From contig CAXWPJ010000012.1 in assembly GCA_963664115.2 (NCBI GenBank), forward strand, positions 384,001 through 448,000: a DNA stretch of 64,000 nucleotides, written 5' to 3'. Both the position numbers and the translations under genes were made by a program. This stretch comes from Terriglobia bacterium (lineage in GTDB: Bacteria > Acidobacteriota > Terriglobia > 20CM-2-55-15). Positions within the stretch are counted from its first letter, which is position 1. Every line of letters starts with the position of its first letter. The notes under the pieces are model-generated. The model saw nothing but the letters and a program-made list of their open reading frames with translations, was not told the DNA's origin and ran no database searches. Shown in pieces: positions 8,656-55,110 of the stretch.

Positions 8656-8850
8656 ATGCGTCGTCCACACTCACGCTATGCATTATCCGGCCTGATTACT
8701 GACCTGCCTGCCAGGAACGCCACAGCCGGAAACACGCTCGACGCCCTCATTCCCGGCGAACGCGGGGTCGACCTCGTCCGGAAAACGGGCGGTCCAGTGT
8801 TCGTTCGAGACGCGACTCCAGCCGCATCGGCGCGAAATCACGCATGGTAG
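8656..8850 (+). CDS. Possible small protein or gene remnant coupled to the permease
   Basis: GAGGAG RBS before the ATG; stop overlaps the permease start; no recognisable motif. Confidence 0.3.
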   Translation: MRRPHSRYALSGLITDLPARNATAGNTLDALIPGERGVDLVRKTGGPVFVRDATPAASARNHAW

Positions 8851-10139: not shown

Positions 10140-10155
10140 AAATCAACTGAGGTTG

Positions 10156-11370
10156 TTAAGGCGTCGGGACGAATTTTTGGATTCGCGTGTTGGGAGCCAC
10201 CTCGGTGACATACAAGTTTCCCTGCGAATCGAATGCCATATATTCGATCTGGTCGAACTGGCCGGCCTGATGCCCTTTGTGGCCGATCGAGCCGACTTCC
10301 GTGCCATCTTCGCGGTTAAGAATCCAGATCTTACCGTTGGCCGCGTCGGCAACGAAGAGATATCGTTGCTCCGGATCTGGAGAAAACGCCGTGGACCATG
10401 CCGTGCCGTTCCCCAGTGTCTCGGGACGAATGAGAAACTCCTCGACGAACATGCCTTCTTTGGTAAACACCTGAACCCGGTTCCCTCCGCGGTCGCTCAC
10501 GTAGACGAATCCGTCAACCGAAATATCGACGTTCATGACCGGACCTCGGAACTGCCGCGCCGGAACTGCCGGATCATAGGGCGGGGATGGGCCATTGTCG
10601 ATCTCACTCAAGGGGATCCCGTAGGCGCCCCAGCCGCGCTTGAATGCTCCCGTGTTCGAGTCGTACACAACGACCCTCCGGTTCATGTAGCCGTCGGCGA
10701 CATAGAGTTCACCGGCTTCGTCGTCGACGAAGATCTCGGAAGGCGCACCCAGCATCGTCGTGTCCTGGTTATTGACGGGATCGTTTGAAGGTTGGCCTAT
10801 CGTCAGGAGAAGTTCCTTGTCTGGAGAAAATTTCAGAACGTGACGATCGCTGTGCAAGATGGCCGGCGGTGGAATCGGGGCTGTGAGCAGTCCGTTATTG
10901 GGGCCGAATCGGTAGTTGCCTCCGAGCCAGAAGTTCCCGGCTGCATCGATGAAAAGACCATGCTCAAGAGTCGGCCAGTTGGGCACGTACTCCGGCCCGC
11001 CCCAGGAGCTGAGCAGGTTGCCCTCGCTATCGAATTCCACCACGGACGGTGCCGGAATACAGCATTCGCTGATCGGGGGTGTCTGTGCTGCTCCGGCGTC
11101 CGCCATCGAGACCTGCCTCGGCCGATTGATAATCCATATATGATCGTCTGCGTCCACATGAAGTCCGGTGCTGTTCCAGAGAATCCAGTTATTGGGCAAT
11201 TCCTTAGGCCAGGACGCATCCACCTGGTAACTCAGCACATCGGGTTCTGCGGTCTCGGCGGCTGTTTCTTCCACGGGTGCCGTGGCGCAGGCGGACACAA
11301 CAAGAAAACAAAAGACGATGACCCCGGGAAACGCGCTTATCTTCATTGTGAACGTTGTTGAAACAGGCAT
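10156..11370 (-). CDS. NHL-repeat beta-propeller lipoprotein (PAL-like)
   Basis: Lipobox VSAC, YVADGYMNRRVVVYD, YVSDRGGNRVQVF, RIQKF. Confidence 0.85.
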   Translation of the reverse strand: MPVSTTFTMKISAFPGVIVFCFLVVSACATAPVEETAAETAEPDVLSYQVDASWPKELPNNWILWNSTGLHVDADDHIWIINRPRQVSMADAGAAQTPPISECCIPAPSVVEFDSEGNLLSSWGGPEYVPNWPTLEHGLFIDAAGNFWLGGNYRFGPNNGLLTAPIPPPAILHSDRHVLKFSPDKELLLTIGQPSNDPVNNQDTTMLGAPSEIFVDDEAGELYVADGYMNRRVVVYDSNTGAFKRGWGAYGIPLSEIDNGPSPPYDPAVPARQFRGPVMNVDISVDGFVYVSDRGGNRVQVFTKEGMFVEEFLIRPETLGNGTAWSTAFSPDPEQRYLFVADAANGKIWILNREDGTEVGSIGHKGHQAGQFDQIEYMAFDSQGNLYVTEVAPNTRIQKFVPTP

Positions 11371-11489
11371 TCGATTGTCCTCCACCGAAATCAGACTCAG
11401 TATCGTTAATGTCTGGAATGCCCGTCAGGATACGCCCAACAAGCGGAGGCTGCAAGATTATTACCGGCACTTGATCGTCGACTCATTGC

Positions 11490-11509
11490 GCCCCACACAG
11501 ATGTGGGGC
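11490..11509 (-). terminator. Hairpin immediately after the DUF5916 gene
   Basis: GCCCCACA-caga-TGTGGGGC; no strong U tract. Confidence 0.4.
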
Positions 11510-11511
11510 AC

Positions 11512-13728: not shown

Positions 13729-13809
13729 TCCCACGAGTATCCCGTAAAATGAGGTTCAAGCGCCAGCGCACGGAGGTATCCCCACCGCGGTGCGGATGGG
13801 TGCACTCGA

Positions 13810-13843
13810 GCAAGAAAGCCCCAAGGCTTGGAGGCCTTCTTGC
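13810..13843. repeat. Imperfect palindrome (terminator- or REP-like)
   Basis: GCAAGAAAGCCCCAAGGCTTGGAGGCCTTCTTGC. Confidence 0.4.
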
Positions 13844-14058
13844 GAGCCTGCGGCGGTCACCGGGTCCGGGTCAACCGGGACAGTCCTCGGTACCGTCGAC
13901 CGTGTTTAAGTTGAAATTGCCGACGACGCCATCGGTATCTATTTGGCAGGTGAGCGGTGCGTTGTATCTCCGGGCATCCCTTCTTCTATATCAGTTTTCT
14001 AGATTAAGGCGCGAGATCCGATCGTCGCCCACACACCCGCCGCGTTCATAGCTTACCC

Positions 14059-15831
14059 TCACGGCGCTTCCGGCAGGGCAAAGGCATAAATTTCGTTATG
14101 ACCGCGAACCGTCTCCACGCCGGCCAGCTCTGCCGGCCCTCGCGTCCCGGAGGCGCCATCCCCCGTCAGGACGGCGACATATTGACGACCGTCCACGGCA
14201 TACGTGATCGTGCTGGTTTGGATAATGCCCCCGAGCACGGCTTCCCAAAGGATTTCGCCGTTGTCTGAATCGAAAGCGCGGAACCGTCGCGCCAGATCGC
14301 CCCAGAAAAGAAGGTCACCGCCCGTGACCAGAGCTGAACCATTGCCGGGAACCGGCTGCGTGTAGATCCGCTCCATTTCGCCCGTAGCAAGATCCACTTT
14401 GGCCATTCCCATAAATTCATCCGGATTGGAACCGGGTCGGACAACGCCGACCCTGGGGCCCCAACCACTTGGGTTATCCGCATTCGCTGTCATGTCCAGG
14501 CAGGAATCGTGAAACGGAATATAAAGCGCGTTTCTGCCGGGGTCATAGGCCGTGGACCAGTAACTTCTGGTGTTGTGGAAGCAGGTGAGGTGTCTTTCTC
14601 CATCCTCGAGGAACACATTGTCCCAATTGATGTGGGTGCGACCCGTTTCAACGTCGATATCGGAAATATTAAATTCTGGCACGTCGTAGGGGAACGGCAT
14701 GGCCCAGAGAAACTCGCCCGTCGCGCGGTCGATGATCCAAATGCCTCCACCCTCTCCAACGGCTACGACGGCATCCCGCTCTTCGCCTCGTGGTATCCCC
14801 GGGTTGATCCATTTCACGGCTGCGGGGTCGGGATCGAAGCGCGTCGTGATCAACGTGCGCTCGTGCAAATGGTCGGCGTCCCAGTCGTCGCCCGGAAGAT
14901 GCTGGTAATACCAGGCCAGCTCGCCGGTCTCGACGTCAATTGCCACCGTTGAATTACTGTAAAGATCGGCGGGCGCTGTCCGTGGCGTCCCGTCCGCGCT
15001 GCCATGGCGGGTCAACCGTGTATAAGGTTTCGGATTCGCAATTCCCCAAAAGGTGAGCTTTCTCTCCGGATCGTAAGACCCGGGCAGTCCCCAGGAACTC
15101 GCGACGCGGTCTTCGACGGGAACCTCACCCCAGGAGTCGCCACCGGGCGTTCCCGGCGCGGCCGTGTTGTAGAACTTCCAAACTTCTTCTCCGGTCAGTG
15201 CGTCATGCGCGACGATGAAGCAGCCGCCGCGCTCGGAACATGTGCGATTCGTAATCACCTTCCCGTCAGCAACGAGGACACCCCCGGTATGTCGCGTATT
15301 GCTGTCCAGCTCAAAAACCTGGGTTTCCCAGCGCACCTGGCCTGTGCGCACATCGAGCGCCACCAAATACCCGTCCGGTGCAGGATAGAAAACCAGATCG
15401 CTGTAGATGGCGATATTCTTCGTCCGAACGTTGACATAGTCCACAGCTTCGTCGGGCACTTCGCGCCAATATTCCCAGATTAGATCACCGCTCGTGGCAT
15501 CAAGCGCAAGGATTCCCGCGCCCGGGGCAACCAGATACATGATCCCGTCATAGACGATGGGCGTTGTTTCCTGCGCGCCACGGGGCAAGCCCCGCGACCA
15601 GGCCATGGCGAGTTGACCGACATTGTCCCGATTGATCTCGTCGAGCGGACTGAAGCGTTGCTCGTCAAAAGTGCGGTTGATCATCAGCCAGTCGGCCGGG
15701 TCGGGATTCAGAAGCATTGCATCGGTAACGGGCGTGTATTCGGGTTCTTGCGCGAATACCGGATACGCGATCAGGTTCAACAATACCGCAGCGCTTATTA
15801 GAACTGCCGCCCACTCCGCTTTAGTCTTCAT
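14059..15831 (-). CDS. Periplasmic PQQ-dependent dehydrogenase (alcohol DH-like beta-propeller)
   Basis: DWLMINRTFDEQRFSPLDEIN..NV, ETTPIVYDGIMY, tryptophan-docking repeats ALDATSGDLIW, ITYAVDGRQYVAV. Confidence 0.9.
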   Translation of the reverse strand: MKTKAEWAAVLISAAVLLNLIAYPVFAQEPEYTPVTDAMLLNPDPADWLMINRTFDEQRFSPLDEINRDNVGQLAMAWSRGLPRGAQETTPIVYDGIMYLVAPGAGILALDATSGDLIWEYWREVPDEAVDYVNVRTKNIAIYSDLVFYPAPDGYLVALDVRTGQVRWETQVFELDSNTRHTGGVLVADGKVITNRTCSERGGCFIVAHDALTGEEVWKFYNTAAPGTPGGDSWGEVPVEDRVASSWGLPGSYDPERKLTFWGIANPKPYTRLTRHGSADGTPRTAPADLYSNSTVAIDVETGELAWYYQHLPGDDWDADHLHERTLITTRFDPDPAAVKWINPGIPRGEERDAVVAVGEGGGIWIIDRATGEFLWAMPFPYDVPEFNISDIDVETGRTHINWDNVFLEDGERHLTCFHNTRSYWSTAYDPGRNALYIPFHDSCLDMTANADNPSGWGPRVGVVRPGSNPDEFMGMAKVDLATGEMERIYTQPVPGNGSALVTGGDLLFWGDLARRFRAFDSDNGEILWEAVLGGIIQTSTITYAVDGRQYVAVLTGDGASGTRGPAELAGVETVRGHNEIYAFALPEAP

Positions 15832-16202
15832 TACGATTCCTCCGGGGTCTTTCGACAGCTGTCGGACCGGGTCGAACACAGTGTTTTCAGCGTGACATGG
15901 GATGTCTATTCTCAAGCCCATGCGCGTGGATTCTGCACCCGAGATGAATTTGTATCGGGAGTATATCGCTGCATCTCGGCACAAACTACCCAAACATTTG
16001 CGAACGGATGTTGGAGATTCAGAGAGAAGCCTGTCAAACAGCCACCTGCTCCTTTCCTGGTGCAAGCGCGCCGGACCAAGAAAGAGGACTCGATGATTCG
16101 TTTCACGCTCTGCCAGGCCGTGATAAGCTCGCTCATGCTGGGACGTGTCGATAAGAAGAGCTGAACCGCAGAAAGCGATCCGGGAAATCCGGGAGGTCAG
16201 TG

Positions 16203-42927: not shown

Positions 42928-43069
42928 CTGCTTCGGAGCGGGTCGCCGGCTGATTCTTCTCCCCCGGAACCCGGATCGAAGGCCAGGGATCCCTGTCGTG
43001 ACAGCTTTGGCGTGCGTGGTGGAAAGAGACCGGGGGAAACCGACGCCATACCCGCCGGCGATGACAGGG

Positions 43070-43312
43070 TCAGTTCCCTTCTTTAAGCAGCAGCCGGGCT
43101 TCTTCCAGCAAGTCAGCGGGCACCAGGAAAGTCACAGGCCGGCCACGTGGGCCGAAAAACGTCCCGCGAAACGCCCCCCGAAATGCGTCGTACTGGTCCT
43201 CGCCACGAGCGATATAGGGGATGGCCGCTGCGTCAAGGAGTGACTTGATCACAGCCACCTGGGCCGGGCTTACCGTCTCAAATACGACCCTGAGGTCCGC
43301 CTCGTCCCCCAT
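43070..43312 (-). CDS. DUF2007-like small protein
   Basis: VIKSLLDAAAIPY, V....EEARLLL. Confidence 0.7.
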   Translation of the reverse strand: MGDEADLRVVFETVSPAQVAVIKSLLDAAAIPYIARGEDQYDAFRGAFRGTFFGPRGRPVTFLVPADLLEEARLLLKEGN

Positions 43313-43402
43313 CTGCTCTCCGATTTAAGGTCAACGTGCACGTATAGTATCGTGACGACAAGCGATCGGGGACCCGGACCGTCCTGCCTGGGTATGTTCC
43401 GT

Positions 43403-43849
43403 TTATTGGTCGGGCTGGTCCTGCCCCCGCCTGCGGTACCTCGGGTGGTACTGCTCATGACACGTGCGACACGAACTCTCGAGTTCCGCGTTCAAAGCGA
43501 TGATGGCGTCCAGATCATGGGCTTCTGCAGCCTCAAACGCTGCCGTTCCTACATCCACCAACACTTTCGCGTTCTTCACCCAGTCGTCCTGATCGATGGA
43601 ACGGCCTCCCATCATGAGCAGGTTTCCGGATTCCGCCAGAATCAGTGCGCTTCCCCGAAGCAGGTTCCACTCGTAGTCGTTGGTAGGGGGCGCTCTCATT
43701 ACATAGAAAATCTCGTCCGACTTCGGATAGATGATATCCACCATGAGTTCGCTTATGGAGGCCACGGGTTCAAAGGACGGTTCCTGTGCGGCGGTCTGTC
43801 CTACCGAAAGCAGGCAGAGGGTCAGAGTCAGCAAACCGATCATTCGCAT
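43403..43849 (-). CDS. Periplasmic cytochrome c'-like four-helix cytochrome
   Basis: Signal peptide, C-terminal CRTCH. Confidence 0.8.
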   Translation of the reverse strand: MRMIGLLTLTLCLLSVGQTAAQEPSFEPVASISELMVDIIYPKSDEIFYVMRAPPTNDYEWNLLRGSALILAESGNLLMMGGRSIDQDDWVKNAKVLVDVGTAAFEAAEAHDLDAIIALNAELESSCRTCHEQYHPRYRRRGQDQPDQ

Positions 43850-44007
43850 AGCAGCTCCTTCGGGAATCTTTGGCAGCAATTCTAGCACTGCCGGCGACCA
43901 AGTCTGATCGAGACTTTTGAGGCCGTCCCGTCTTGTGAAGTCGAAACCGGTGTGAGATTCCAGTTCCAACTTCCAACGCTGGGCCAACAAAATCGAAATT
44001 ACAGTTG

Positions 44008-44041
44008 TCAACGTCCGACAAGATGATTTCGCAGGACTTGA
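44008..44041. repeat. 34-bp bulged palindrome, copy A
   Basis: TCAACGTCCGACAAGATGATTTCGCAGGACTTGA, identical to 47021-47054. Confidence 0.9.
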
Positions 44042-44049
44042 ACTTGAAA

Positions 44050-44121
44050 TTATGGCGCCGGCACCCGTTCCTTAAGTTTTTCAAACGAGGTGTGAACAAC
44101 GACGATCTGTTGCTGTTCAGA
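44050..44121 (-). pseudogene. Kinase-PD40 C-terminal tail remnant
   Basis: SEQQQIVVVHTSFEKLKERVPAP*. Confidence 0.72.
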
Positions 44122-44177
44122 TGAGTTCGGCGACCAAGAATCAACTTCGACGTGAGAAAGGCTCTGACGGGCTACAC

Positions 44178-45239
44178 TCAGTCGTTGCCGGCCGTCAACA
44201 GGTTATACGCCGCCTCGACGTTGCGGTCGCGTTGCGGGACGTAGTTGGGAAGATCGCCGTAGTCGCCGAGCGCGTCGCTCGCCAACAGGTCTTCCAGCGA
44301 CGTTTCCGACTCCACCGCGCCGGTGATGGCGGCCTGGAGATCCTCGAAGAACTCCCGGTATGCGGTGAAGTCCGCTTTCGTGCCGACACTGCTGTGGCCG
44401 GGTGAAACAATATCGAAGTCCAGTGCTTCGACTCGCTGGAGTGAGTCGATCCACTGTGACAGCGTCCCGGTGCCGGGGAACCCCAGAGCGAGCCGCTTGA
44501 CGTTGATGAAATCCACCCCGTAGATCACTCGCTCCTCGGGAAACAGGAGCACCGTCGCGTCGATGGAATGGTTCGGTCCGGGATGGATGAGCTCCACGGT
44601 CTTGCCGCCCAGCGTGATCGTCAGGCGCTCGGAGTAGAGCATCTCCGGCCCCAGCACGTCCGCCAGTATCTCCCCCGCATCGAGATAGCCGTCGGCATTG
44701 GTGTCGAACGCATCGAAGTAGGGCGCCAGGTCGCCGCTGGCTTCGTTTCTATCGAGCCGCTGATCGCCGTCGGCATCGACCAGCGTCACTTGGACGGGAA
44801 AGCCGGCTATCGCATCCTCGAGCGCGATGGGCAGGTTCGCGTGCCCCACAAAGGTCGCCGTTTCGTCGAATACCCGGCCGCCGGAGGCATGATCCCAGTG
44901 ATAATGGCTGTAGAGCACGTAGCGCACGGGCACCCCGAACCGCTGTGCCAGTTCACCCTCCAGCCAGGTTGCGAAGTCGGCGTTGAGCGGGTCGGCAAGG
45001 ATGATCCCCTCGGCGGTGACGAGGAACACCGTGAAATGGGTGCCGTCCTGTGCACGGTAGAGATCCCCGGCGATCGGCACGATCTCCCGGGCAGGCTCCT
45101 CGCTCTGGGCTTGACCCGCCGGCGGCGGCGCGTCACCGGTGGAGAGGTCGGCCGGCTGATCGCTCCCTTGCTGCGAGCACGCGGCAAGGAATAGCAGCAG
45201 ACCCACGAGTAGCATCGGTGCGGCATATCTCATCATCAT
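44178..45239 (-). CDS. MBL-fold hydrolase lipoprotein with EF-hand pair insert
   Basis: Lipobox LAAC, SHYHWDH, PNHS, SPGH; DADGDQRLDRNE and DTNADGYLDAGE. Confidence 0.87.
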   Translation of the reverse strand: MMMRYAAPMLLVGLLLFLAACSQQGSDQPADLSTGDAPPPAGQAQSEEPAREIVPIAGDLYRAQDGTHFTVFLVTAEGIILADPLNADFATWLEGELAQRFGVPVRYVLYSHYHWDHASGGRVFDETATFVGHANLPIALEDAIAGFPVQVTLVDADGDQRLDRNEASGDLAPYFDAFDTNADGYLDAGEILADVLGPEMLYSERLTITLGGKTVELIHPGPNHSIDATVLLFPEERVIYGVDFINVKRLALGFPGTGTLSQWIDSLQRVEALDFDIVSPGHSSVGTKADFTAYREFFEDLQAAITGAVESETSLEDLLASDALGDYGDLPNYVPQRDRNVEAAYNLLTAGND

Positions 45240-45510
45240 TAACTATCCCCGGCAACGTGCCGATCTGATCGGTGATCTGGCATGGACCTAGACGTGTATC
45301 CGCCTCGATGGACGCGCAACTCCTCTAAACGAGCTCGCACGTAAAACTCACAGAACTATATAGAGCGCGCGGGATGGGGGTCAAAGGAAAAGTGTTGCTC
45401 ACCACTCCACCAACGTCTTCTCCTCAACCTCCCGAAAGCACTTCGGGCGCTTCGCGGGCTCCGGGGGCAGGCCACGTCGAATTAATAGCAGGGTTCAGGT
45501 ATTACAGTTC

Positions 45511-45544
45511 TCAACGTCCGAGAAGATGATTTGTCGGGACTTGA
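45511..45544. repeat. 34-bp bulged palindrome, copy C
   Basis: TCAACGTCCGAGAAGATGATTTGTCGGGACTTGA. Confidence 0.85.
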
Positions 45545-45587
45545 ACCGTCATCTGCCTCCCTTAACTTCCCCGAAGCCGACTTCTCG

Positions 45588-45632
45588 GTCGTAGGCGGGC
45601 TGCATCATCACTACGAGCGGCGTGATGTGTAA
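45588..45632 (+). mobile_element. Remnant of the C-terminus of an integrase-core-domain transposase
   Basis: VVGGLHHHYERRDV* matches the typical GGLHHxYxR tail. Confidence 0.5.
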
Positions 45633-45968
45633 TCGATGTGCTCTTTCTGTCGGGCAGGGTCCGGAGCGCCATGTCCGGGCCGGGCTAGCTGCCGGGGATC
45701 GGGGATCGATCCGGGTGCACTTGCCAGGTCATTCGCAATGCTGCGCCTTTCATCGAACTGTCCGTCGTTGTAAACAGCCGTAAAGAGTGGCTGGATGCGT
45801 TTTGGCGAATGACGCCTGCCCGGTAAAGCTCAACTCCCGATACCTCTTGGATAACGTGATGGGAGCTCCGCATGGGAGCTCCGCATTGCGTGCGCCGGGG
45901 AACGGGGAGTACACTCAGCGCAGTTATTTCCATGCCTCGGGCCCGGTGCCACGAAAAGGGAGGTCTTC

Positions 45969-46706
45969 ATGCGACGTTCAGTGACGGTAAACACAACGAT
46001 TGGATTGATTGCGGTATTCGGTATGTTCGGGATGCTTTCCGGCGCCTTGGCCCAGGAGACCCCGGCGCAGATGGTGGCCCCGCTGTTCCTGAAAGTGGAT
46101 TGGGTGCGGCCGGCTAGCCAGGAAGACACCTCCCTCCGCTACACGCCGGTTCAGGAAAACATCGCCGATCCGAACGTGGAGATCCACTATTACGGGCCGG
46201 GAGCCAAGCAGATCCTGACCACGGGCAATCCGGAGAGCGACGTTCGGCCCTACGGCGTGTGGACGGGGACGGCCGAAGGTCCCTTTGCCATCACCTTCGG
46301 GATGAAGAACGGCAACTATGTCGATCTCACCGGCCTGGCCAACGTCCGGTGGTTCACGAAGACTTCGGGTTTCCATGTCGTGCGTCCCGTCGTAAAGCTG
46401 GCCGACGGCACCCTGCTGGTCGGCGACCGGACTTTCTCTTCGGTGCCTAAGCTCACCCTAAGCGAGTTCTCCCTGACCGATATTCGCTGGATCAAGCTGG
46501 AGCCGGAGCGCATGGTCACGGTCAACAGCGGCCGGTCCCCGACGAACGAAGTCTGGGCCCCCAATCCGGACCTCACCCGCGTCGCGGAAGTCGGCTTCGC
46601 CGACCTGTATCCCGGCAGCGGCCACGGAACCGGCGGGTATATCCACCTCGCCGGGATCGAGGTCTACGGCAAGACCGTGCCGCGAGGGGCGAGGAGCAGC
46701 CGTTAG
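45969..46706 (+). CDS. Secreted hypothetical protein, paralogue of 28955-29653
   Basis: RPVVKLADGTLLVGD, DLTRVAEVGF..GSGHG. Confidence 0.8.
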   Translation: MRRSVTVNTTIGLIAVFGMFGMLSGALAQETPAQMVAPLFLKVDWVRPASQEDTSLRYTPVQENIADPNVEIHYYGPGAKQILTTGNPESDVRPYGVWTGTAEGPFAITFGMKNGNYVDLTGLANVRWFTKTSGFHVVRPVVKLADGTLLVGDRTFSSVPKLTLSEFSLTDIRWIKLEPERMVTVNSGRSPTNEVWAPNPDLTRVAEVGFADLYPGSGHGTGGYIHLAGIEVYGKTVPRGARSSR

Positions 46707-46762
46707 GCTTTTTCTCGAAGCGGTCTTGGGCGATCCAAGAACGGTCGCGCCCACCGAGTGCC

Positions 46763-46942
46763 CTTGGCTTCACGTTCAAACCGTGCGAGGCGATCTGCAT
46801 CCTTCGCAAACTCTTCGGGCAGAGTCTTGATAGCAATTTCACGCCCGAGTTTCGTGCCACGCGCACGCCACACTTCCCCCATTCCGCCCTTACCCCGGAG
46901 GCTCAGGACTTCGTAGTGACCAAGTTTGGTGCCTGATTCCAT
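46763..46942 (-). pseudogene. Truncated Ser/Thr kinase (first ~60 aa only)
   Basis: MESGTKLGHYEVLSLRGKGGMGEVWRAR..IAIKTLPEEFAKDADRLARFEREAK, then homology stops. Confidence 0.9.
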
Positions 46943-46983
46943 GATCTAGTGTGCAGTTGAAATGACCGAGAAAAACTCGGTAA

Positions 46984-47012
46984 AGGATACTAAAGCAGGA
47001 AGTTAGGCGCTA
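46984..47012 (-). promoter_or_regulatory. Promoter of the truncated kinase (prototype of the repeated promoter)
   Basis: TAGCGC-17-TATCCT. Confidence 0.65.
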
Positions 47013-47020
47013 TCAAATCC

Positions 47021-47054
47021 TCAACGTCCGACAAGATGATTTCGCAGGACTTGA
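47021..47054. repeat. 34-bp bulged palindrome, copy B
   Basis: Identical to copy A; lies between a kinase tail and a kinase promoter. Confidence 0.9.
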
Positions 47055-47072
47055 GAATGGATTTCGAAGGTT

Positions 47073-47138
47073 CTACGGGACTGGCTCCTGTTGCTTCAGT
47101 TCTTCAAACCAGTTCCCGACGACGTTGATTTGGAGTGG
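47073..47138 (-). pseudogene. Kinase-PD40 C-terminal tail remnant
   Basis: PLQINVVGNWFEELKQQEPVP*. Confidence 0.82.
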
Positions 47139-47192
47139 CAGCGGTTCTCTGGGTCCTCCGGTTTCGGTGCGAGATGATTTTCCTTTAGACTT

Positions 47193-48053
47193 TTACTCTG
47201 GTGGCTCGACCACAGGACGAATAATGTTCCCGTTCTCATCTTGATATACCGCTTGTTCCAGGCCGGACCCGCCGATGGTGGGCTGAAGGTGCTCGACGTC
47301 CCTTTCGTAGTCCATGCAGGCATGAGACATAATCCGGTCCGGAGCCGTCACGCGCTGAAGCGTCTGCATTGTCGTAAACGGCTTCACGAAAAACACGGGA
47401 TCGGTATGCGTCACCGTGTACTCGATCGTGTTTGGGTCGGCCAGGTGAAATCGTTCGGTGAGATGCAGCTGGTCACTGTGTTCGTGACCGGAAATGTCCA
47501 GCCACGTTCGGTCATTGATGCTCACTGTGTCCACAACCAGCGTGTCTCCCTCCCACTTGCCGAGCGCGTGCCCCGTCCATTCCGGATAGTCATGAATGTA
47601 TTCGGGATGATCCCGCCCATCCGTATAGATCAGGCGGAAGGTGTACTGAGATTCGCTGAGGATTACGAGCACGTCAGGGCGCTGAACAAACATGGTGGGA
47701 TGGCTACGGATGACCATCCTGGACGGACCCGGGGGGAGGCAGAATGTATTGGGATCCTGAGCGTGGTCGACGGTCTGATATCTTTCGTATCCATATGCGG
47801 TGAGAATCATTTCATCACCCGGCACAGTGACCTGGGAGAGGTCCCTGGCAGTCCGTCCAGTCCAAACACCGCTGAGGTCCACGGGTCCGATATCCACGGG
47901 TCCAGATGGAGAGTCTTCTCCCAAATACCACCAGGCACCCTCCAACCCAGATCCGGGCGCACTCAATTGCGCCTGGGCAGGGATCACCACGAGGATTAAA
48001 GCGCAGAACTGTGCCCACGCGGCAAAAGTTAAAACCGAAAAACGCTTGCTCAT
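47193..48053 (-). CDS. Secreted hypothetical protein, DUF6152-partner family
   Basis: DPNTFCLPPG, RLIYTDGRDHP, GHALGKWEGDTLVVDT, HSDQLHLTER. Confidence 0.85.
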   Translation of the reverse strand: MSKRFSVLTFAAWAQFCALILVVIPAQAQLSAPGSGLEGAWWYLGEDSPSGPVDIGPVDLSGVWTGRTARDLSQVTVPGDEMILTAYGYERYQTVDHAQDPNTFCLPPGPSRMVIRSHPTMFVQRPDVLVILSESQYTFRLIYTDGRDHPEYIHDYPEWTGHALGKWEGDTLVVDTVSINDRTWLDISGHEHSDQLHLTERFHLADPNTIEYTVTHTDPVFFVKPFTTMQTLQRVTAPDRIMSHACMDYERDVEHLQPTIGGSGLEQAVYQDENGNIIRPVVEPPE

Positions 48054-48231
48054 GCTGAGCCTCCATATCGAATCACGATTCTGCTTCGAGGGATCCAGAC
48101 CGGGATTCGACTCGCCTAACATCTGATTTTAATTCGTGCTGTCCAATGCAAACGCTGCCGCACGTCGCCATCGCCCAAAGTCTCTGACGGTGACGCTGTC
48201 GGGAGCGACCTTGGCTCCTGAATAGTTGTCT

Positions 48232-48663
48232 CTAGTTGTTGCCTCTAGGCCCGGTAGGTCCTCTATCGTTGGCCGAACCTCCGTACACCCGACGACCATC
48301 GGGCATCGTCACGTTCCGCCCGTTGATGAGGTTCGACCCGTCTCTGGCTCGGAAGCCCTCCACTCTGACGCTATCTCCAATCTTCAGATCGTCTTTGCGC
48401 CAGCCTCTCCTGAACAGATTGTTCGGCGTGCCACCCTCGATGGCCCAATTCTCCACCGCGCCGCTTTCGTCTTCTACATCCACGAACAAGTAGATGTGCG
48501 GATTCCTCCACTGCACTTCCGTGATTTGGCCTTCTACCGTAATGGGCGCATTCGAATCGTATTGGGCCGCGAACGAATGGTGTGCCTCGAGGGAGAGTCC
48601 TCCCAGGAACAGGGCCACACCCACGGCGAATGCACCCGACCACGCTGGTTTCGTTAGCTTCAT
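48232..48663 (-). CDS. DUF6152-like secreted protein
   Basis: LEA|HHSFAAQYD, WRNPHIY, WAIEG, LKIGD. Confidence 0.9.
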   Translation of the reverse strand: MKLTKPAWSGAFAVGVALFLGGLSLEAHHSFAAQYDSNAPITVEGQITEVQWRNPHIYLFVDVEDESGAVENWAIEGGTPNNLFRRGWRKDDLKIGDSVRVEGFRARDGSNLINGRNVTMPDGRRVYGGSANDRGPTGPRGNN

Positions 48664-48830
48664 CGAGCCCTCCAGACTGAAATCCGTTTTGGGGTTGCTG
48701 CGCTTCCTCGACTGAGATGCCCGCTAGATCTAACTACAGGTGGGATGTGTAAGCAAGAAAAGTCTCAAGAGAAAAGTCTCAAGAGCATTAGGAGAAAATA
48801 AGAGCCCTCCCCCCGATAATGATTGGGGAA

Positions 48831-48993
48831 ACAGCGCCGACTCCAACGTCAGATCCAGCGGTAGCCGTCCTTTCTCTAACCCAGCCGTCAGAGTGTCCCT
48901 TTCGACACATTCCATGACGACGTAGTGTGTGGGGTCCTGTTCGCCAACATCGTGAAGGGTGCAGATATCAGGATGGTTCAGGCTGCTTAGAGC
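48831..48993 (-). pseudogene. Internal Ser/Thr kinase fragment (subdomains IV-VIa)
   Basis: LSSLNHPDICTLHDVGEQDPTHYVVMECVERDTLTAGLEKGRLPLDLTL. Confidence 0.85.
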
Positions 48994-49256
48994 GGTGGTT
49001 CACGGCAACGGAGTTGGTAGAGGTGTGGGGCCGCTGGCCGTCCGGCGAGACATCACTGTGGAAATCCAGGCGAGGTCGTGACATCGTGGGGTCTGAAGAA
49101 CCGCATCGCAAGTTCTCGTTTCGCTGTGCCAGCTTAAACGCGGCTGACGTTTCGGAACGTGTAGTTCGTGCGGCAACCCTATGAGCGCTGCGGGGAGCGC
49201 GATACCCCGTGGATCAAAAACAGAACGTGCGTTTAATGGAAAAGGTGAGCATTGCG

Positions 49257-50330
49257 ATGTCTATTTCACGATTAGCGAGACCTTGGTTTGGGGCAACAAT
49301 AGTCATTGGGATTGCACTGCTGGGAGGCCGCGTCTACACGCAGGATGTTCAGCCCGTAAACAGTGGCGCGAATCCGTATCGCACCATTCGAAATTGGGGC
49401 ATGTTACCGGAGGAAAGACCGTGGGGGGCCGCGAACGGCGTCGACATCGACCCCGACGGTCAGTCCGTCTGGGTGGCCGACCGATGCGGAACACGCGAGG
49501 GCTGTGTCGGGTCCCAAGTGGACCCGATTCAGAAGTTCGACGAGTCAGGAAACCTGCTCGCGAGCTTCGGCGGAGGCATGTTCGTGTGGCCGCATGGTCT
49601 CCACGTCGACCAGGATGGAAATGTGTGGGTGGCTGACTCGCGACGCCCGACCGCAGAAGAGCTCCAGACGTTTCCCGGAGAAAAAGACAAGGGCAGCGTG
49701 GTGGTCAAGTTCAGCCCGGAGGGCGAGGTCCTCATGACGCTGGGGCAGTTCGGCGTGGCCGGCAGTCCGCCCGATGCCTTGACCGACCCGATCGACGTTG
49801 TGACCGCTCCAAACGGCGACATTTACGTGACCGAGAGCCATACCAGGGGCCAGGACCCGGACGTCGTCGGACGCATCTCGGTGTTCGACAGCACCGGGCA
49901 GTTCATCAAAACCATCGGGAAATTGGGGACCGGGCCGGGCGAGTTCCGAAGACCCCACGGCATCGTGTTCGACTCGCTTGGCCGCCTGATCGTTGCCGAC
50001 CGGCAGAACCACCGCATCCAGATCCTGGACACGGACGGAAATTATATTGGTGAATACCGAGAGTTCGGCCGCGTGAGTGGGCTGACCATCGATCAGGACG
50101 ACACGATTTATACGAGCGACTCCGAATCAAACGCGAGCAATCACCCAGGCTGGCGCAGGGGGATCCGGATCGGGAGCCTCAAAGACGGCAAAGTGACGAT
50201 GTTCATTCCTGGCCACGAAACGGATTCCCCCGAAGGCGCTGCCGGGGAAGGAATCGCGCTCGACGCCGCCGGCAATCTGTACACTGCAGAAGCAACAGTG
50301 ACGGGAGTGACAAAGTACGTCAGGGATTAG
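49257..50330 (+). CDS. NHL-repeat PAL-like protein, paralogue of 19774-20793
   Basis: VWVADRCG..CVGS, WPHGLHVD, VADRQNHRIQI, GIRIGS. Confidence 0.88.
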   Translation: MSISRLARPWFGATIVIGIALLGGRVYTQDVQPVNSGANPYRTIRNWGMLPEERPWGAANGVDIDPDGQSVWVADRCGTREGCVGSQVDPIQKFDESGNLLASFGGGMFVWPHGLHVDQDGNVWVADSRRPTAEELQTFPGEKDKGSVVVKFSPEGEVLMTLGQFGVAGSPPDALTDPIDVVTAPNGDIYVTESHTRGQDPDVVGRISVFDSTGQFIKTIGKLGTGPGEFRRPHGIVFDSLGRLIVADRQNHRIQILDTDGNYIGEYREFGRVSGLTIDQDDTIYTSDSESNASNHPGWRRGIRIGSLKDGKVTMFIPGHETDSPEGAAGEGIALDAAGNLYTAEATVTGVTKYVRD

Positions 50331-50430
50331 AGGCCATTCGTGAGGCACTGGGCCAACGATGTGTCGGATTAGAACTGAGGTCGTTGGGGAAGGTCTAGCA
50401 AGAAGGGTAGATAGCAAGGCAACGAAATTC

Positions 50431-50464
50431 TCGAGATCCGAGAAGATGATTCATCGGGACTTGA
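50431..50464. repeat. 34-bp bulged palindrome, copy D
   Basis: TCGAGATCCGAGAAGATGATTCATCGGGACTTGA. Confidence 0.8.
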
Positions 50465-50473
50465 CCTTGAAAA

Positions 50474-50527
50474 TCAGGACACCGGGACCCGTTCCTTCAG
50501 TTCTTCAAACCAGTTCAGGACGGTGTT
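50474..50527 (-). pseudogene. Kinase-PD40 C-terminal tail remnant
   Basis: NTVLNWFEELKERVPVS*. Confidence 0.82.
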
Positions 50528-51117
50528 CCCCGCCGTTCACTGTCACGAAACCACCGGTGATCTTGCCCGTCTCAGCCTTGGCAGCGCCGGCATCAACAGG
50601 GGATAGAGGCGCGTCGACGTCACCAGGCCTCCCATGATTACGACTGCCATGGGTTTTCGGTTTCATAGCCCCGAGCAGTGCCCGCCATTGCGATAGGCGA
50701 AGGCGCCAGAGCGGTCATCAATGCGGTCATCAGAATGGAGGCCAAACGTTCCTGGGCTCCTCAAACGGGCAACTCCGTCCCGGGCATCTAAGTCGAGTTT
50801 CGCCTGGAAGGGCGCTTGGCAGCGGTTTGTGACTGATTCTGGAGATGGGCGTAGTTCATTGATCCGTTTAGCCGCCACAGGCTTTCTCTCAGATTGAGAG
50901 TTACGACCGTCTGCCCGAAGAGCCCTGGCGCGGGACGGCTGTGGGGGGCGACAAGTTCGACGATCGATTAAATTGACTTGAGGGTGAGCCGGGATATAAT
51001 TTCGCCCGCGGGCACGACCGAGCCACGGTCGAGCAACGTTCAGCGCGACAGCGTCTCCAAACAAACACCTAGACACGCCATGCTTCAACTGGCAGACCAG
51101 TCACGAGGGTCAAACTA

Positions 51118-52962
51118 ATGAGCAAACCGAGCAAACCGCCCGTTAACCGCCGCAATTTTCTGAAGGGTGCTGCGGCTGGTGCAGCAGCGATCGTCGCCGA
51201 ACCCGCCCTGGCAGCGACGCCAGAAGGCGCACTTCCAGCGCCGCTGCCATCGAGTGCTGTTCAGGTGGGGGACGACGGAACGCGCTACGCGTCTGACTAC
51301 ATGGTCGATCTCTTCAAGTCTTTGGGGCTCGAGTACGTCTTAGCGATGCCGGCCGGGAACTTTGCTGGGCTCATTGAATCGGTGGCCCACTATGCGGGCA
51401 ACAGCAACCCCGAGTGGATCACCTGCATGCATGAAGAATCCTCGGTGGCCATGGCGAACGGGTACGCGAAGATTGAAGGCAAGCCCGTGCTGGTGTGCGC
51501 ACACGCAACGGTGGGGTTGCAACATGCCACGATGGGCATCTATGACGCCTGGTGCGACCGGGTGCCAATCTACATGGTGCTGGGAAATACTCAGGATGCG
51601 ACCCAGCGTGGCGGGTATGTCACCTGGGTCCACAGCGCCCAAGACCCGTGTGGCCTGGTTCGCGATATTACAAAGTGGGACGACAATCCCATCTCGACGG
51701 CACATTTTGCCGAGTCGGCTGTGCGCGCTTACAAGATAGCCACGACTCCACCGATGGGGCCGGTAGCACTCGTGCTGGACGAGCACCGCCATCTTGAGCG
51801 AGTCCCCGCGAATATGCGAATTCCCACTTTGAGCGTGCCTACGGCGCCTCAGGGTGACGCGTCAGCCGTAGCCGAGGCGGCGAGACTTCTGGTGGCGGCT
51901 CGGAATCCTGTGATCACCGTCGGCCGAACCGCACGCACGCCCGCGGGCGTGCCACTGCTGGTCGAACTGGCCGAGACCTTGCAGGCTGGAGTCGTCGATC
52001 GATGGCACCGGCGGATGAACTTCCCGTCGCGTCACCCACTCAATGGCGGCGATTTGAACGATGCCGATGTGATTCTGGCCCTGGAGGCAGGCGATATCGC
52101 CGGCATGGCTCGCCAGGCCAAACAACGTGACGCCACGGTGATCAATGTCAGCGACACTGAACTCTATCTCAAGAGCAACTACCAGGATTTCTTCGAATAC
52201 GCCGAAGTGGATCTATCCATAAGCGGAGACGCGGAGGCGACCCTGCCAACGCTGATCGAATCGGTGAAGCGCTTGATCACGCCCAATCGCCGAGTCGCCT
52301 TCGAGGCACGCGGCCGGACGGTGGCAGCGGCGAACCGGCAGGCCCTGGACAGAGAGCGCATAGCGGCCACCCACGGCTGGGACGCCAGCCCGATCAGCAC
52401 GGCGCGGCTTTCCATGGAATTATGGGAGCAGATCAAGAACGAAGACTGGTCGTATGTGTCGGGCTGGGTCACATGGCCCCTGCGGCTCTGGGATTTCGAC
52501 AAGCATTACCAATTCATCGGCCGCGCAGGCGGAGAAGGCATCGGCTACCATCTGCCGGCGACCATCGGAGCTGCTCTCGCCAACAAAAAGTATGGCCGGC
52601 TGACGGTCTCGATCAACGGCGATGGGGACTTCATGGTGGCGAACGGTGCATTGTGGACGGCCGCACATCATCAGATTCCGATCCTGATCATCATGCAGAA
52701 CAACCGTGCGTACCATCAGGACTACATGGACATGGACCGCATTGCTCATGTGCGGGACCGGGGAAGCTCCTCGACAATGGGTATCGGAACCGAAATCACA
52801 AACCCCGATATCGACTACGCCCAACTCGCGCAAAGTTTAGGCGTCGCAGCCGAAGGTCCGATTTCAGACCCCAGGGATCTGGCGGCGGCCATTCGGCGTG
52901 GCATTGAGGTCGTCAAGGGGGGGCAGCCCTATCTCATTGATGCCATCACACAACCGCGGTAA
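51118..52962 (+). CDS. Thiamine pyrophosphate-dependent enzyme (ALS/benzoylformate decarboxylase-like) with Tat signal
   Basis: NRRNFLKG, HEESSVAMANGYAK, GDGDF..(x24)..NN. Confidence 0.9.
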   Translation: MSKPSKPPVNRRNFLKGAAAGAAAIVAEPALAATPEGALPAPLPSSAVQVGDDGTRYASDYMVDLFKSLGLEYVLAMPAGNFAGLIESVAHYAGNSNPEWITCMHEESSVAMANGYAKIEGKPVLVCAHATVGLQHATMGIYDAWCDRVPIYMVLGNTQDATQRGGYVTWVHSAQDPCGLVRDITKWDDNPISTAHFAESAVRAYKIATTPPMGPVALVLDEHRHLERVPANMRIPTLSVPTAPQGDASAVAEAARLLVAARNPVITVGRTARTPAGVPLLVELAETLQAGVVDRWHRRMNFPSRHPLNGGDLNDADVILALEAGDIAGMARQAKQRDATVINVSDTELYLKSNYQDFFEYAEVDLSISGDAEATLPTLIESVKRLITPNRRVAFEARGRTVAAANRQALDRERIAATHGWDASPISTARLSMELWEQIKNEDWSYVSGWVTWPLRLWDFDKHYQFIGRAGGEGIGYHLPATIGAALANKKYGRLTVSINGDGDFMVANGALWTAAHHQIPILIIMQNNRAYHQDYMDMDRIAHVRDRGSSSTMGIGTEITNPDIDYAQLAQSLGVAAEGPISDPRDLAAAIRRGIEVVKGGQPYLIDAITQPR

Positions 52963-52972
52963 GGAGGCTGGA

Positions 52973-53398
52973 TTGACCAAGATATCACCAAACTCGAAGG
53001 TGCTACCCGGATGGGCGGTCTGGCTCATTTCTCTGACTGCCTTAGTGGTGCTCTTCGTGCCGGTCTCTGGCGCCGAAACTCAAGGCAATGCGCCCGCCGG
53101 AAATCCGCAAAACGGTAAGACTGTCTTCATGAACACCGGCTGCTACCGATGCCATGGAACTGTGGGGCAGGGCGGCCCGGGTGGACGGCTGGCCCCGAAC
53201 ACTATTCCGTTTGGGATCTTTGCTTCCTTTGTGCGCAACGGAAAAAGAAGCAATCCCAATGCCAACGTGAATTGGTCGGGAATGCCGCCTTATTCGGAGA
53301 AATTCATATCGAATTCCGAACTCGCAGATATTCACGCTTATCTTGCCAGTATTCCGCCATCGGCTCCGGTCGGGAGTATACCGTTGTTGAACGATTAG
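52973..53398 (+). CDS. Monohaem class I cytochrome c
   Basis: AAGGAGG RBS, signal peptide, CYRCHG, GMPPY. Confidence 0.87.
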   Translation: MTKISPNSKVLPGWAVWLISLTALVVLFVPVSGAETQGNAPAGNPQNGKTVFMNTGCYRCHGTVGQGGPGGRLAPNTIPFGIFASFVRNGKRSNPNANVNWSGMPPYSEKFISNSELADIHAYLASIPPSAPVGSIPLLND

Positions 53399-53608
53399 AG
53401 TATGTCCCCGCGATTCGGTCCGTTGCCGGTCCAACTTCCGATCAAAAATGGCCAAACGAACGGCTCTTTCTCTATTTTTGAAATTCTCAACGTCAAGAAG
53501 ATGGCCACTTTCGACCGATCCAGGCACGGACCACAAGTCCCCCTGATATCAGTCAGACTTATATTCGCCACCCACACCCGCCCGTGCTATCTTCGTCCGC
53601 CGACACGA

Positions 53609-53637
53609 TTGACAAACACTTCTGCGAAAACTAGACT
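53609..53637 (+). promoter_or_regulatory. sigma70-type promoter of the DUF6152/partner operon (copy 2)
   Basis: TTGACA-17-TAGACT. Confidence 0.75.
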
Positions 53638-53730
53638 TTGCTCCAAGCAAGGCGCAGCATGCCCCCGTCCTCTCACAGGTGGGGCTATCTTATAAAATCT
53701 CTGTTCCGCTGTTGCTCAGGAGGATTTCAC

Positions 53731-54108
53731 ATGTTCCGGACTCTACAAATTGTTTTATTTTGCTTCTGTTTCGCGGCCGTGGCCGTGGCGCACCACTCCA
53801 CGACTGCCGTATACGACGCGGACGAGCCGGCCATAATGCTGGAGGGAACCGTGACGCAGGTGGAATGGCGGAACCCGCACATATGGTTCTACATCGATGT
53901 CGTTGGTGACGAGGGTAACGTCACGAACTGGGGCGTGGAATTCCAGACCCCTCCCGCGAGAATGTTCAGGAGAGGCTGGACGCAGGAATCGTTGCAGGTT
54001 GGCGACGTGGTCAAGGTGGAAGGTTCTCCCCCGAGAAACCGCGAGCTCATCCGCGTCTTGAGCCGGACGACGATCCTGCCCGACGGCAGAGAACTGGGCG
54101 GCAGATGA
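53731..54108 (+). CDS. DUF6152-like secreted protein, close paralogue of 16957-17340
   Basis: AVA|HHSTTAVY, WRNPHIW, ILPDGRELG. Confidence 0.9.
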   Translation: MFRTLQIVLFCFCFAAVAVAHHSTTAVYDADEPAIMLEGTVTQVEWRNPHIWFYIDVVGDEGNVTNWGVEFQTPPARMFRRGWTQESLQVGDVVKVEGSPPRNRELIRVLSRTTILPDGRELGGR

Positions 54109-54206
54109 AGAACGAATCCAGCGCGATAGTCCCGGTCAAGCCGGGAGAACGTTAAAGAAGTTTGATGGGGTCACTGCACCCGCACGATTCCACAAGAGGT
54201 ATTGAC

Positions 54207-54971
54207 ATGAGGAGTGGCATTCAGTTTTCATTTTGTTTCGTGATTCTAGTCAGCGCCGTCATGCTTTCCCCCGTCCCCACCGCCGCCCAATCGGATTGGG
54301 ATCCGCGGGATTTCGGGGGCATTTGGCGCGCCGGCACAAGAGACATCACGGTGGCGTTGCAGCCCGGCGAGGAGATCGCATTCACACGCTATGGCGCCGA
54401 GCAGCACCGGGCCTTCGATCTCAAGGACTATTCCACCAAGGGATGCCTGCACAAGGGGCTCACCCGGCAGTTGCTCTCGAACGCTCTTTCGATGTTCGCT
54501 TACGATGACGATCTCGAAATTATGATGTTCCTGCACGAGGACCACTACCGCTGGCGGGCAATCTACATGGACGGCCGGGAGCATCCGCGGGAGGCGCCCG
54601 ATTTTCCGGAGCCGGCCGGACATTCGATCGGCCACTGGGAGGGCGACACCCTGGTTGTGGACTCGGTCGGTTTCCGCGACAGCACCTATCTGGACACCGA
54701 CGGGCTGGGGCACAGCACCGAGCTGCATCTCATCGAAAGGTACACCCGGACGGGACCGGACACGATCGATTGGGTGGTGAGGGTCGAGGATCCGACGTTT
54801 TTCCTCCATCCGTTTACCTTTCAAACGGAGTTCACCCGGCAGCCTCCCAATATCCGGCTGATGTATTATGATTGCGACTACGAACAGGACATCGAACATT
54901 TGGAGTCGTGGATCCGAGGCGAGGAAGGTGAAATTCACACCAATCCTGATGTTTTCGTGTTCCCTGAGTGA
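54207..54971 (+). CDS. DUF6152-partner protein, close paralogue of 17429-18205
   Basis: GHSIGHWEGDTLVVDS; same VFVFPE end. Confidence 0.85.
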   Translation: MRSGIQFSFCFVILVSAVMLSPVPTAAQSDWDPRDFGGIWRAGTRDITVALQPGEEIAFTRYGAEQHRAFDLKDYSTKGCLHKGLTRQLLSNALSMFAYDDDLEIMMFLHEDHYRWRAIYMDGREHPREAPDFPEPAGHSIGHWEGDTLVVDSVGFRDSTYLDTDGLGHSTELHLIERYTRTGPDTIDWVVRVEDPTFFLHPFTFQTEFTRQPPNIRLMYYDCDYEQDIEHLESWIRGEEGEIHTNPDVFVFPE

Positions 54972-55110
54972 GGTGAGACAGAAGGAAGTTCCCAGTCGAA
55001 ACCTTGGTGTGTTTGTTGGGAGAATCCCGGTTTCGTTTCCGCGATGCCGGGATTTGATCAGCTGAGTCGGGACCGGTTTTGAGCCCGCCGAATCAGAAGA
55101 CCTCTACGCA

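Follow-up and report, generated by a model that had tools for sequence, protein, structure and literature searches.

The window analysed here, a 64-kb stretch of a Terriglobia bacterium genome (G000:C12:384001-448000, G000 being the 4.89-Mb source genome), contains several copies of a 34-base-pair (bp) motif that typically lies between the decayed tail of a kinase gene and a promoter-like leader. Our analysis suggests that this motif is a lineage-restricted intergenic repeat located at the joints of horizontally shared gene modules, and we tentatively favor the view that it serves in double-stranded form as a site for site-specific recombination. Excision, insertion, or exchange of modules would occur at the motif, whose two 14-bp arms and asymmetric 6-bp center would be read as duplex DNA by an enzyme of the tyrosine recombinase kind, with strand exchange taking place in the motif center; the position of this exchange may be indicated by a single natural insertion/deletion. 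A passive repeat resembling the repetitive extragenic palindromic (REP) sequences is nearly as likely an explanation, and readings as an operator, a terminator, an attC-like site, or a by-product of ISCR-type gene capture are weaker than these two.

A high-copy intergenic repeat with two arms and an asymmetric center

In the window, the 34-mer occurs exactly at 44008-44041 (copy A) and 47021-47054 (copy B), with 0 occurrences expected from 100 shuffles. Copy C (45511-45544) and copy D (50431-50464) deviate from the genome consensus at 2 and 6 positions, respectively, and half copy E (53481-53497) corresponds to the left half with a 1-nucleotide (nt) deletion. The original prediction, made by a model from the letters of the window, had listed identical copies at 44008 and 47021, variants at 45511 and 50431, and a partial copy at 53481, all of which we recovered. 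It had also placed three copies 9-19 bp from the stop codon of a kinase tail; the three copies stand, and the distances had to be corrected to 8 nt for copy A, 18 nt for copy B, and 9 nt for copy D, copy C being without a tail. Its further remark that copies A and B are identical beside tails that have diverged proved accurate (IVVVHTSFEKLKERVPAP versus INVVGNWFEELKQQEPVP).

Throughout the source genome, 161 copies were found with up to 8 mismatches to the consensus, and 126 copies with up to 3 mismatches to a degenerate pattern, for which the reversed-pattern control yielded 0. In the kinase reading direction, the motif is TCAAGTCCTGAGAA ATCATC TTCTCGGACGTTGA. A typical copy in minus-strand reading consists of a tail remnant (..INIVLNWFEELKERVPVP), the stop codon, a spacer, the motif, the letters GAATT, and a promoter-like leader, the spacer between stop and motif measuring 9 nt, or about 19 nt or more in other classes. 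Conservation drops sharply past GAATT, which is followed by promoter-like leaders of many kinds, and decays gradually into the tail on the opposite side. Most positions of the motif are conserved in more than 95% of the 161 copies, positions 5, 11, 12, and 23 being free, and the 6-nt center is conserved to the same degree as the arms. Two imperfect inverted arms around an asymmetric conserved center (GATGAT) give a 14-6-14 layout, which is that of the core sites of tyrosine recombinases. A second class of copies has the same arms and the center TGTCGT or GGTCGT; it precedes one type of kinase promoter, is sometimes found back to back with a main-type copy at a distance of 58-148 nt, and could represent a site class that does not cross-react with the main one.

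According to gene positions from our own crude gene caller, which is based on open reading frames (ORFs), 159 of the 161 copies are intergenic; in being a short extragenic palindrome in high copy, the motif resembles REP sequences. Among neighboring copies less than 10 kb apart, 85 of 113 pairs are co-oriented, and the median spacing is 2.2 kb; close inverted pairs number 6. Co-orientation holds for the downstream gene in 108 of 160 copies and for the upstream gene in 95 of 161. As judged from Pfam, the genes between copies form a diverse accessory set that includes a metallo-beta-lactamase fold protein, an NHL propeller, PQQ dehydrogenases, DUF6152 pairs, a luciferase-like oxidoreductase, an ABM monooxygenase, an APH-type phosphotransferase, YaeQ, an ECF sigma factor, peptidases, and insertion sequence (IS) elements.

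Two other roles were rejected: a small ORF starting at the central ATG, the reading frame of which differs between flank classes, and a sigma-70 promoter within the motif, for which there is no suitably spaced -10 box. A literature search on the tail motif or on kinase-linked palindromes in Acidobacteria yielded nothing relevant.

Modules change their neighbors at the motif

Five blocks of the window (44146-45546, 45815-46771, 47164-48771, 49162-50525, and 53501-54981) are 91.5-97.7% identical to the genome of a sister species, G002, where they are located at five far-apart places, four of the five loci having a motif copy. The syntenic backbone (window positions 8384-15917) is 84-87% identical to G002, so that the blocks look recently exchanged between species, and the blocks of two further arrays behaved in the same way when compared with G002. 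The homology of the first block to G002 ends 2 nt past copy C, and the last block begins right after half copy E.

Adjacency was examined against 800 kb of G002 arrays, requiring that both 400-nt flanks matched over 150 nt or more with an identity of 88% or higher. The original prediction had proposed that synteny breakpoints be mapped relative to the motif, and the breaks do fall there: none of the 7 motif joints with both flanks traceable is still adjacent in G002, compared with 57 of 58 controls inside blocks (20 of 20 midpoints between motifs and 37 of 38 random points). Of 33 flank matches on the tail side, 21 had homology extending to within 10 nt of the motif edge, as did 14 of 34 on the promoter side, and 23 of these 35 edge-reaching matches have a motif at the corresponding place in G002. 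Within the source genome, the flank in common is limited to the promoter side in 136 pairs of copies and to the tail side in 1,278, and both flanks are shared by 31 pairs, indicating that the two motif flanks recombine freely. Arm variants are weakly associated with the flank on their own side (right arm with tail-side class, p = 0.01; left arm with promoter-side cluster, p = 0.078), and the corresponding cross-tests gave p = 0.17 and 0.48.

A natural insertion/deletion at the motif center

The window stretch is present in public metagenome runs of nine studies. Window regions that run X12 does not cover were left out of the comparison. In two runs from two studies (X14 and X16), contigs that are 97-98% like the window, with shorter sides of 114 and 141 nt, join position 50442 to position 53498 and omit 3,055 bp. 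The joint shares the 6 letters AAGATG, about 8 nt in all being identical there, and the cut may sit up to 6 nt further to the right. It is composed of the left half of copy D and the DNA that follows half copy E in the source genome, and the two left arms differ. As read from the sequence, the skipped block starts with the right half of the motif and ends with the left half, which is the product expected of a center exchange between a full and a partial site. From general knowledge, about 8 shared nt together with differing left arms are too little for homologous exchange of the RecA type.

Near-identical DNA to window positions 43300-50700 was detected in runs of nine studies, with 11 runs containing half or more of the sampled words, and the organism therefore appears to be widespread enough for a population-level study of module turnover.

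Layout of the window

The features of the array in the window are listed below with their strand and the basis of their assignment; the kinase-type reading direction of copy A is the minus strand.

44008..44041, plus strand: motif copy A (exact match)
44050..44109, minus strand: decayed kinase-tail remnant beside copy A (..TSFEKLKERVPAP, stop 8 nt off the motif; from the sequence)
44146..45546, minus strand: module 1, leader and metallo-beta-lactamase-fold gene, with copy C at the upstream end (Pfam; comparison with G002)
45511..45544, plus strand: motif copy C (from the sequence; G002 homology ends 2 nt past the tail-side edge)
45815..46771, plus strand: module 2, gene 45969-46706 with no Pfam family (Pfam; comparison with sister genomes)
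46703..47020, minus strand: kinase head remnant of 79 codons, MESGTKLGHYE..GKGGMGEVWRA, with a promoter-like leader directly after copy B (from the sequence)
47021..47054, plus strand: motif copy B, identical to copy A (exact match)
47073..47133, minus strand: kinase-tail remnant beside copy B (..NWFEELKQQEPVP, stop 18 nt off the motif; from the sequence and comparison with G002)
47164..48771, minus strand: module 3, DUF6152 gene and partner gene (Pfam; 93.8% identical to G002, at another place)
49162..50525, plus strand: module 4, NHL-repeat gene, copy D, and about 60 nt of tail (Pfam; 92.8% identical to G002, at another place)
50431..50464, plus strand: motif copy D, degenerate with 6 differences, its G002 counterpart being consensus-like (from the sequence)
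50443..53497, no strand assigned: 3,055-bp block with a TPP-enzyme gene and a downstream ORF (cytochrome c according to the original prediction), absent from close relatives
50474..50527, minus strand: kinase-tail remnant beside copy D (..VLNWFEELKERVPVS, stop 9 nt off the motif; from the sequence)
53481..53497, plus strand: half motif E, left arm with a 1-nt deletion and center through GATG (from the sequence; missing before the G002 counterpart of the following block)
53501..54981, plus strand: module 5, second DUF6152 gene and partner, beginning directly after the half motif (Pfam; 91.5% identical to G002, at another place)

Module 1 is 96.3% identical to G002, where it is found at an unrelated place, and module 2 is 97.7%, 93%, and 94% identical to the sister genomes G002, G004, and G001, respectively, occupying a different place in each. 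The tail remnant beside copy A aligns at 73% with the motif and tail of G002, and every sister genome contains dozens of partial matches to the stretch with the kinase head remnant.

Two minor repeats were observed in the same region. At 48740-48775, a 13-nt tandem duplication (CTTGAGACTTTTC twice) precedes a promoter-like module of the form TTGCTT..TAGTTA, and the motif is reduced there to its last 5 letters. The other short repeat, whose 7-bp stem is perfect (CCAGAAG CCGA CTTCTGG and variants), is located at 45545-45640 and in several motif flanks, and recurs in leaders.

Kinase remnants and distribution of the motif among relatives

Kinase tails that end no more than 12 residues from the stop number 75 in the source genome, with 8 on frames of at least 300 amino acids and 60 on frames below 100 amino acids. 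Around intact kinases of about 880-900 amino acids, the order is remnant tail, motif, promoter, kinase, tail, and motif. The kinase C-terminus was detected in 29 of 31 genomes of the family and the motif, using a sequence-only model, in 11 of 31; the motif is thus no obligatory part of the kinase genes.

This model yielded at least 150 matches in the source genome, 151 in G002, 97 in G003, 19 in G001, and 11, all weak, in G004. Depending on the search, G003 contains 40 to 97 copies and G004 none or weak ones, one of the G004 genome's motifs lying decayed behind an intact kinase tail. Five genomes of a second genus have 0 to 9 matches each, two genomes of a third genus have one weak match each, and the model did not find the motif in the other 20 genomes of the family, among which many assemblies are fragmented. 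The motif is abundant in two of the four sister species (G002 and G003), and in the other genera searched it is rare or was not found, although nearly all genomes there have the kinase family.

The original prediction had made its readings depend on the motif being more conserved than neighboring kinase-derived DNA, and across genera this is so. In two genomes of the second genus, the motif retains 31 and 30 of 34 letters, compared with 33 and 36 of 60 letters in the adjoining 60-nt kinase tail. The same comparison inside the source genome gave 93% for the motif and 83% for the tail.

Observations that weigh against a recombination site

A number of observations speak against a recombination site and keep our preference for it tentative. 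Motif-free intergenic gaps in the arrays were still adjacent in G002 in just 4 of 8 cases, and as half of these gaps are also broken, the contrast with the motif joints (0 of 7) is only suggestive. Several block ends are located at the outer edges of tail or head remnants, off the motif, and the motif is absent from the ends of a 6.7-kb difference to G001. In corresponding copies of the source genome and G002, the arm beside the shared flank does not show greater similarity than the other arm (23 versus 26 and 19 versus 20 differences), so that this comparison does not place the crossover point within the motif. Corresponding copies also decay: copies C and D differ from their G002 counterparts at 4 and 7 of 34 positions, respectively, in surroundings that are 93-96% identical. 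A second array (L003, four runs) gave no clean center-to-center joint, which leaves one such insertion/deletion in all; it showed joints at repeats with 37 nt or less on the shorter side and a 106-nt difference unrelated to the motif. Finally, consensus copies fold well, with two bulges (RNA, -13 to -20 kcal/mol; z = -1.2 to -5.1), so that recognition of a folded strand is possible; folding is not what is conserved.

The lack of a matching enzyme weighs in the same direction. The original prediction had pointed to a recombinase or HUH gene at the edge of the array; such genes exist in the genome, and none of them accompanies the motif across the species searched. An integron integrase scoring above its NCBIfam cut-off (440 versus 265 bits) is encoded on the minus strand at L001:9591-10760 (G000:C9:714591-715760), a different contig from that of the window, and the surrounding 20 kb contain no motif. 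Such an integrase was found in G001 and G002 and was not found in G003, G004, and G007, a distribution that does not follow motif abundance, and a link of the motif to the integron was rejected on these two grounds. Small ORFs and inverted repeats ending in GTTAGGC beside this integrase may constitute a classical integron unrelated to the 34-bp motif.

Homologues of an IS91-linked integrase number 21 in G001 (20 of them full-length), 2 in G002, 2 in G004, and 1 in G007. This integrase was not found in motif-rich G003, yet it is present in motif-poor G004. A single-copy tyrosine recombinase gene on contig C5 (C5:52192-53139; L019:2062-3267) lies exactly between two inverted motifs with the variant center and was not found in G002, G003, and G004. 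Both were discarded as the enzyme of the motif because their presence does not track it. Outward of the C5 recombinase gene, each flanking motif is followed by a kinase promoter and a head remnant, and the whole has the appearance of a unit that could be inverted or excised.

Two RAYT-like Y1 transposase genes (L004:1539-2318 and 4149-4658), 93% alike over their shared first 300 nt, each reach 56 bits against the RAYT cut-off of 80 (NCBIfam NF047646). One degenerate motif copy is found 260 bp upstream of one of the Y1 genes, and none on the other side. Being below the cut-off and not flanked by the motif, the two genes were rejected as a RAYT link.

A passive repeat as the closest alternative

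It is possible, if doubtful, that the motif is a passive REP-like repeat that originated in the 3' intergenic region of multi-copy kinase genes and has no dedicated function, and that its numerous near-identical copies, along with the kinase heads and tails that are just as repetitive, are places at which an island-rich genome is rearranged by IS elements, by the decay of gene families, and by recombination of the general or illegitimate kind. The motif is a short imperfect palindrome, intergenic, genus-specific, and in high copy, and its individual copies decay, as seen for copies C and D and in G004. Breaks also at motif-free gaps and at the edges of kinase heads and tails, and the absence of an enzyme tracking the motif among those searched for, would be expected of such a repeat as well.

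The motif is also a target of IS elements. About 28 copies are broken at or beside the motif center, and many half motifs exist. At least four IS types are located in or at the center: an IS110-type element of 1,561 bp, present in 7 copies at one fixed point (G000:C10:417468-419042 and six other places); a second IS110-type element at a nearby center point, with 5 right junctions; an IS30-type element that has terminal inverted repeats and is found in about 10 copies, also at a nearby center point; and a further element without family assignment, in 3 copies. The broken copies also include 3 half motifs that are joined to an IS91-type end. Repeats of the REP type are likewise described as landing pads for IS110-type and other IS elements in two reports (PMC11208160, 10.1101/2025.01.17.633520).

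What speaks for constraint, and so against a passive repeat, is the pattern of conserved positions with four free sites, which is kept in two genera beside a diverging tail. A filled site with its empty counterpart was not found in the source genome: no empty paralogous site was convincing, and 221 of 224 flank pairs have a motif-sized gap. The two RAYT-like genes, with their low scores and without flanking motifs, do not support a REP system either. Stretches of 34-39 identical bases are at the lower limit for RecA exchange, and the one resolved joint shares only roughly 8 nt.

Regulatory, folded, and transposon-derived elements

An unlikely explanation is that the motif is a cis-regulatory protein-binding site, an operator or insulator between a gene end and the next promoter, and that the shuffling is a by-product of recombination between kinase paralogues. 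Dyad symmetry and conservation without covariation agree with protein binding, a promoter-like module is always present within about 35 nt on one side, and the second center class is tied to one type of kinase promoter. Copies followed within 400 nt by a co-oriented gene are slightly closer to the consensus (1.16 versus 1.86 mismatches, p = 0.04). Against this, the downstream gene is co-oriented in just 108 of 160 copies, copy D has the 3' end of a convergent gene in front of it, and about 55 bits conserved over more than 100 sites are, from general knowledge, far above usual operator sets. The operator considered in the original prediction finds no support as an operator of the kinase family, given that the family is present in 29 of 31 genomes and the motif in 11, and that the distance to the -35-like hexamers varies (+4, +9, +21, and +33).

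Quite improbable is a folded single-strand element, whether a DNA hairpin of the attC or HUH (REP/IS200) type that has extrahelical bases or a hairpin that terminates or stabilizes RNA. It could account for the folding of the consensus copies as predicted and for the several IS types that target hairpin-forming repeats and sit in the motif, and the source genome does encode an integron integrase above the family cut-off. The covariation analysis proposed in the original prediction, however, revealed no compensatory changes. Among 161 copies, pair 12-23 is paired in 66 compared with 69.8 expected under independence, and changes at pairs 11-24 and 6-30 lack compensation; for 40 copies from five genomes, the covariation score was 0.031 versus 0.030 in shuffles, 216 of 500 shuffles being equally high. 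Copies in the window, including A and B, fold like shuffled sequence (z = -1.05 to +0.30), and a larger fold comprising tail and motif was rejected (z = 0.09). The loop is also as conserved as the arms. The original prediction of a single-strand recombination site is favored in its recombination part, for which the synteny breaks and the natural insertion/deletion speak, and is not supported in its single-strand form with extrahelical bases.

Sites of the attC type have the ends R'' RYYYAAC and R' GTTRRRY, which pair with each other. One end of the motif, GTTGAGA, corresponds to 6 of 7 letters of R'; the other is TCTCAAG, or AATCAAC where the tail remnant begins (5-6 of 7). Where attC sites conserve structure and vary in sequence, the motif conserves its sequence. 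We agree with the original prediction that this is not a canonical attC site. Its terminator or RNA-stability hairpin is not supported, since the stem is followed by GAAUU instead of a U tract and the upstream gene is co-oriented in 95 of 161 copies; a search of window positions 43000-54500 against Rfam at permissive thresholds gave no match.

Least probable of all is that the motif is a surrogate end or target in rolling-circle gene capture of the IS91/ISCR type. An IS91-family element encoding a tyrosine recombinase followed by a Zn_Tnp_IS91/Y2_Tnp transposase is present in six identical and two diverged copies, always beside or inside a motif copy (L021:7387-9000 and seven places, e.g., G000:C1:92986 and C12:487047). 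Its recombinase-side end is located 25-35 nt from the motif or joined to a half motif, and in G002 about 190 bp separate one homologue of its integrase from a motif. Identical copies of the element have different motif-side flanks, which hence derive from the target, the opposite end has no motif, and the ends of the element are unlike the motif. The element was not found in G003 with its 40 to 97 motif copies, and it is abundant in G001, which has few motifs.

Comparison with known systems

Acidobacteria are among the most abundant soil bacteria, and the routes by which they gain and reshuffle accessory genes are poorly known. In its widest form, the recombination-site reading would describe integron-independent module exchange in a genus of soil Acidobacteria, where a host-encoded recombinase would act on a 34-bp duplex site with more than 100 copies, first lodged behind kinase genes; promoter-bearing modules would be excised, inserted, or swapped at it and circulate between species, and the second center class would keep separate joints. 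We consider this scenario conceivable and hold it with less conviction than the site itself. If the motif is a true recombination site, it would add a third kind of site-bounded module system, chromosomal and with more than 100 copies, beside integron cassettes and the dif modules of Acinetobacter, would provide a simple sequence handle for mobile modules in metagenomes, and would imply a recombinase activity that awaits discovery. Even as a mere passive repeat, the motif would account for the mosaic of single-gene blocks in these genomes, for the breaking of assemblies at this sequence, and for its attraction of several IS families.

Integron cassette arrays and clusters of attC sites lacking integron integrases (CALIN) are similar in having co-oriented repeated sites 0.4-10 kb apart with diverse accessory genes between them, modules shared between species, and IS elements in the sites. 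The motif differs from them in conserving sequence rather than structure, without covariation and with a 34-bp core, in bounding modules that have their own promoter-like leaders and genes on both strands, and in its distance from the integron integrase of this genome. REP and REPIN sequences are likewise palindromes of 20-40 nt that are intergenic, genus-specific, present in hundreds of copies, and targeted by IS110-type elements. Unlike those associated with a RAYT gene, the motif flanks no such gene, forms only 6 close inverted pairs, shows no covariation, and is tied to module joints. With the recombination sites loxP and FRT (13-8-13, 34 bp), it shares the total length, the inverted arms, and an asymmetric center that gives direction, and its second center class recalls spacer variants of these sites that do not cross-react. 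In contrast to them, the motif is a putative site deduced from DNA sequence, and 1-nt shifts break the symmetry of its arms.

Plasmids and chromosomes of Acinetobacter carry dif (pdif) modules, discrete gene modules bounded by short dyad sites that have a 6-bp center (PMC13141974, PMC12907356, PMC5790767, PMC10132070). The two systems agree in that the same module occurs in varied contexts, that modules carry no recombinase of their own, and that the sites are targets of dedicated IS elements. They differ in length (34 bp with a 14-6-14 layout compared with 28 bp and 11-6-11 for dif) and in orientation, the motif sites being mostly direct and the dif sites alternating, and the motif is chromosomal, present in more than 100 copies, and linked to kinase-gene tails. 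It is also unlike the dif-like candidate of the source genome, which was located with a consensus from general knowledge and is itself unverified. This search revealed two dif-like sequences 3.4 kb apart on contig C2, about 109.5 and 112.8 kb from the far contig end (minus-strand positions 989652 and 993048), a pair that presumably could be the chromosomal dif with an element integrated alongside.

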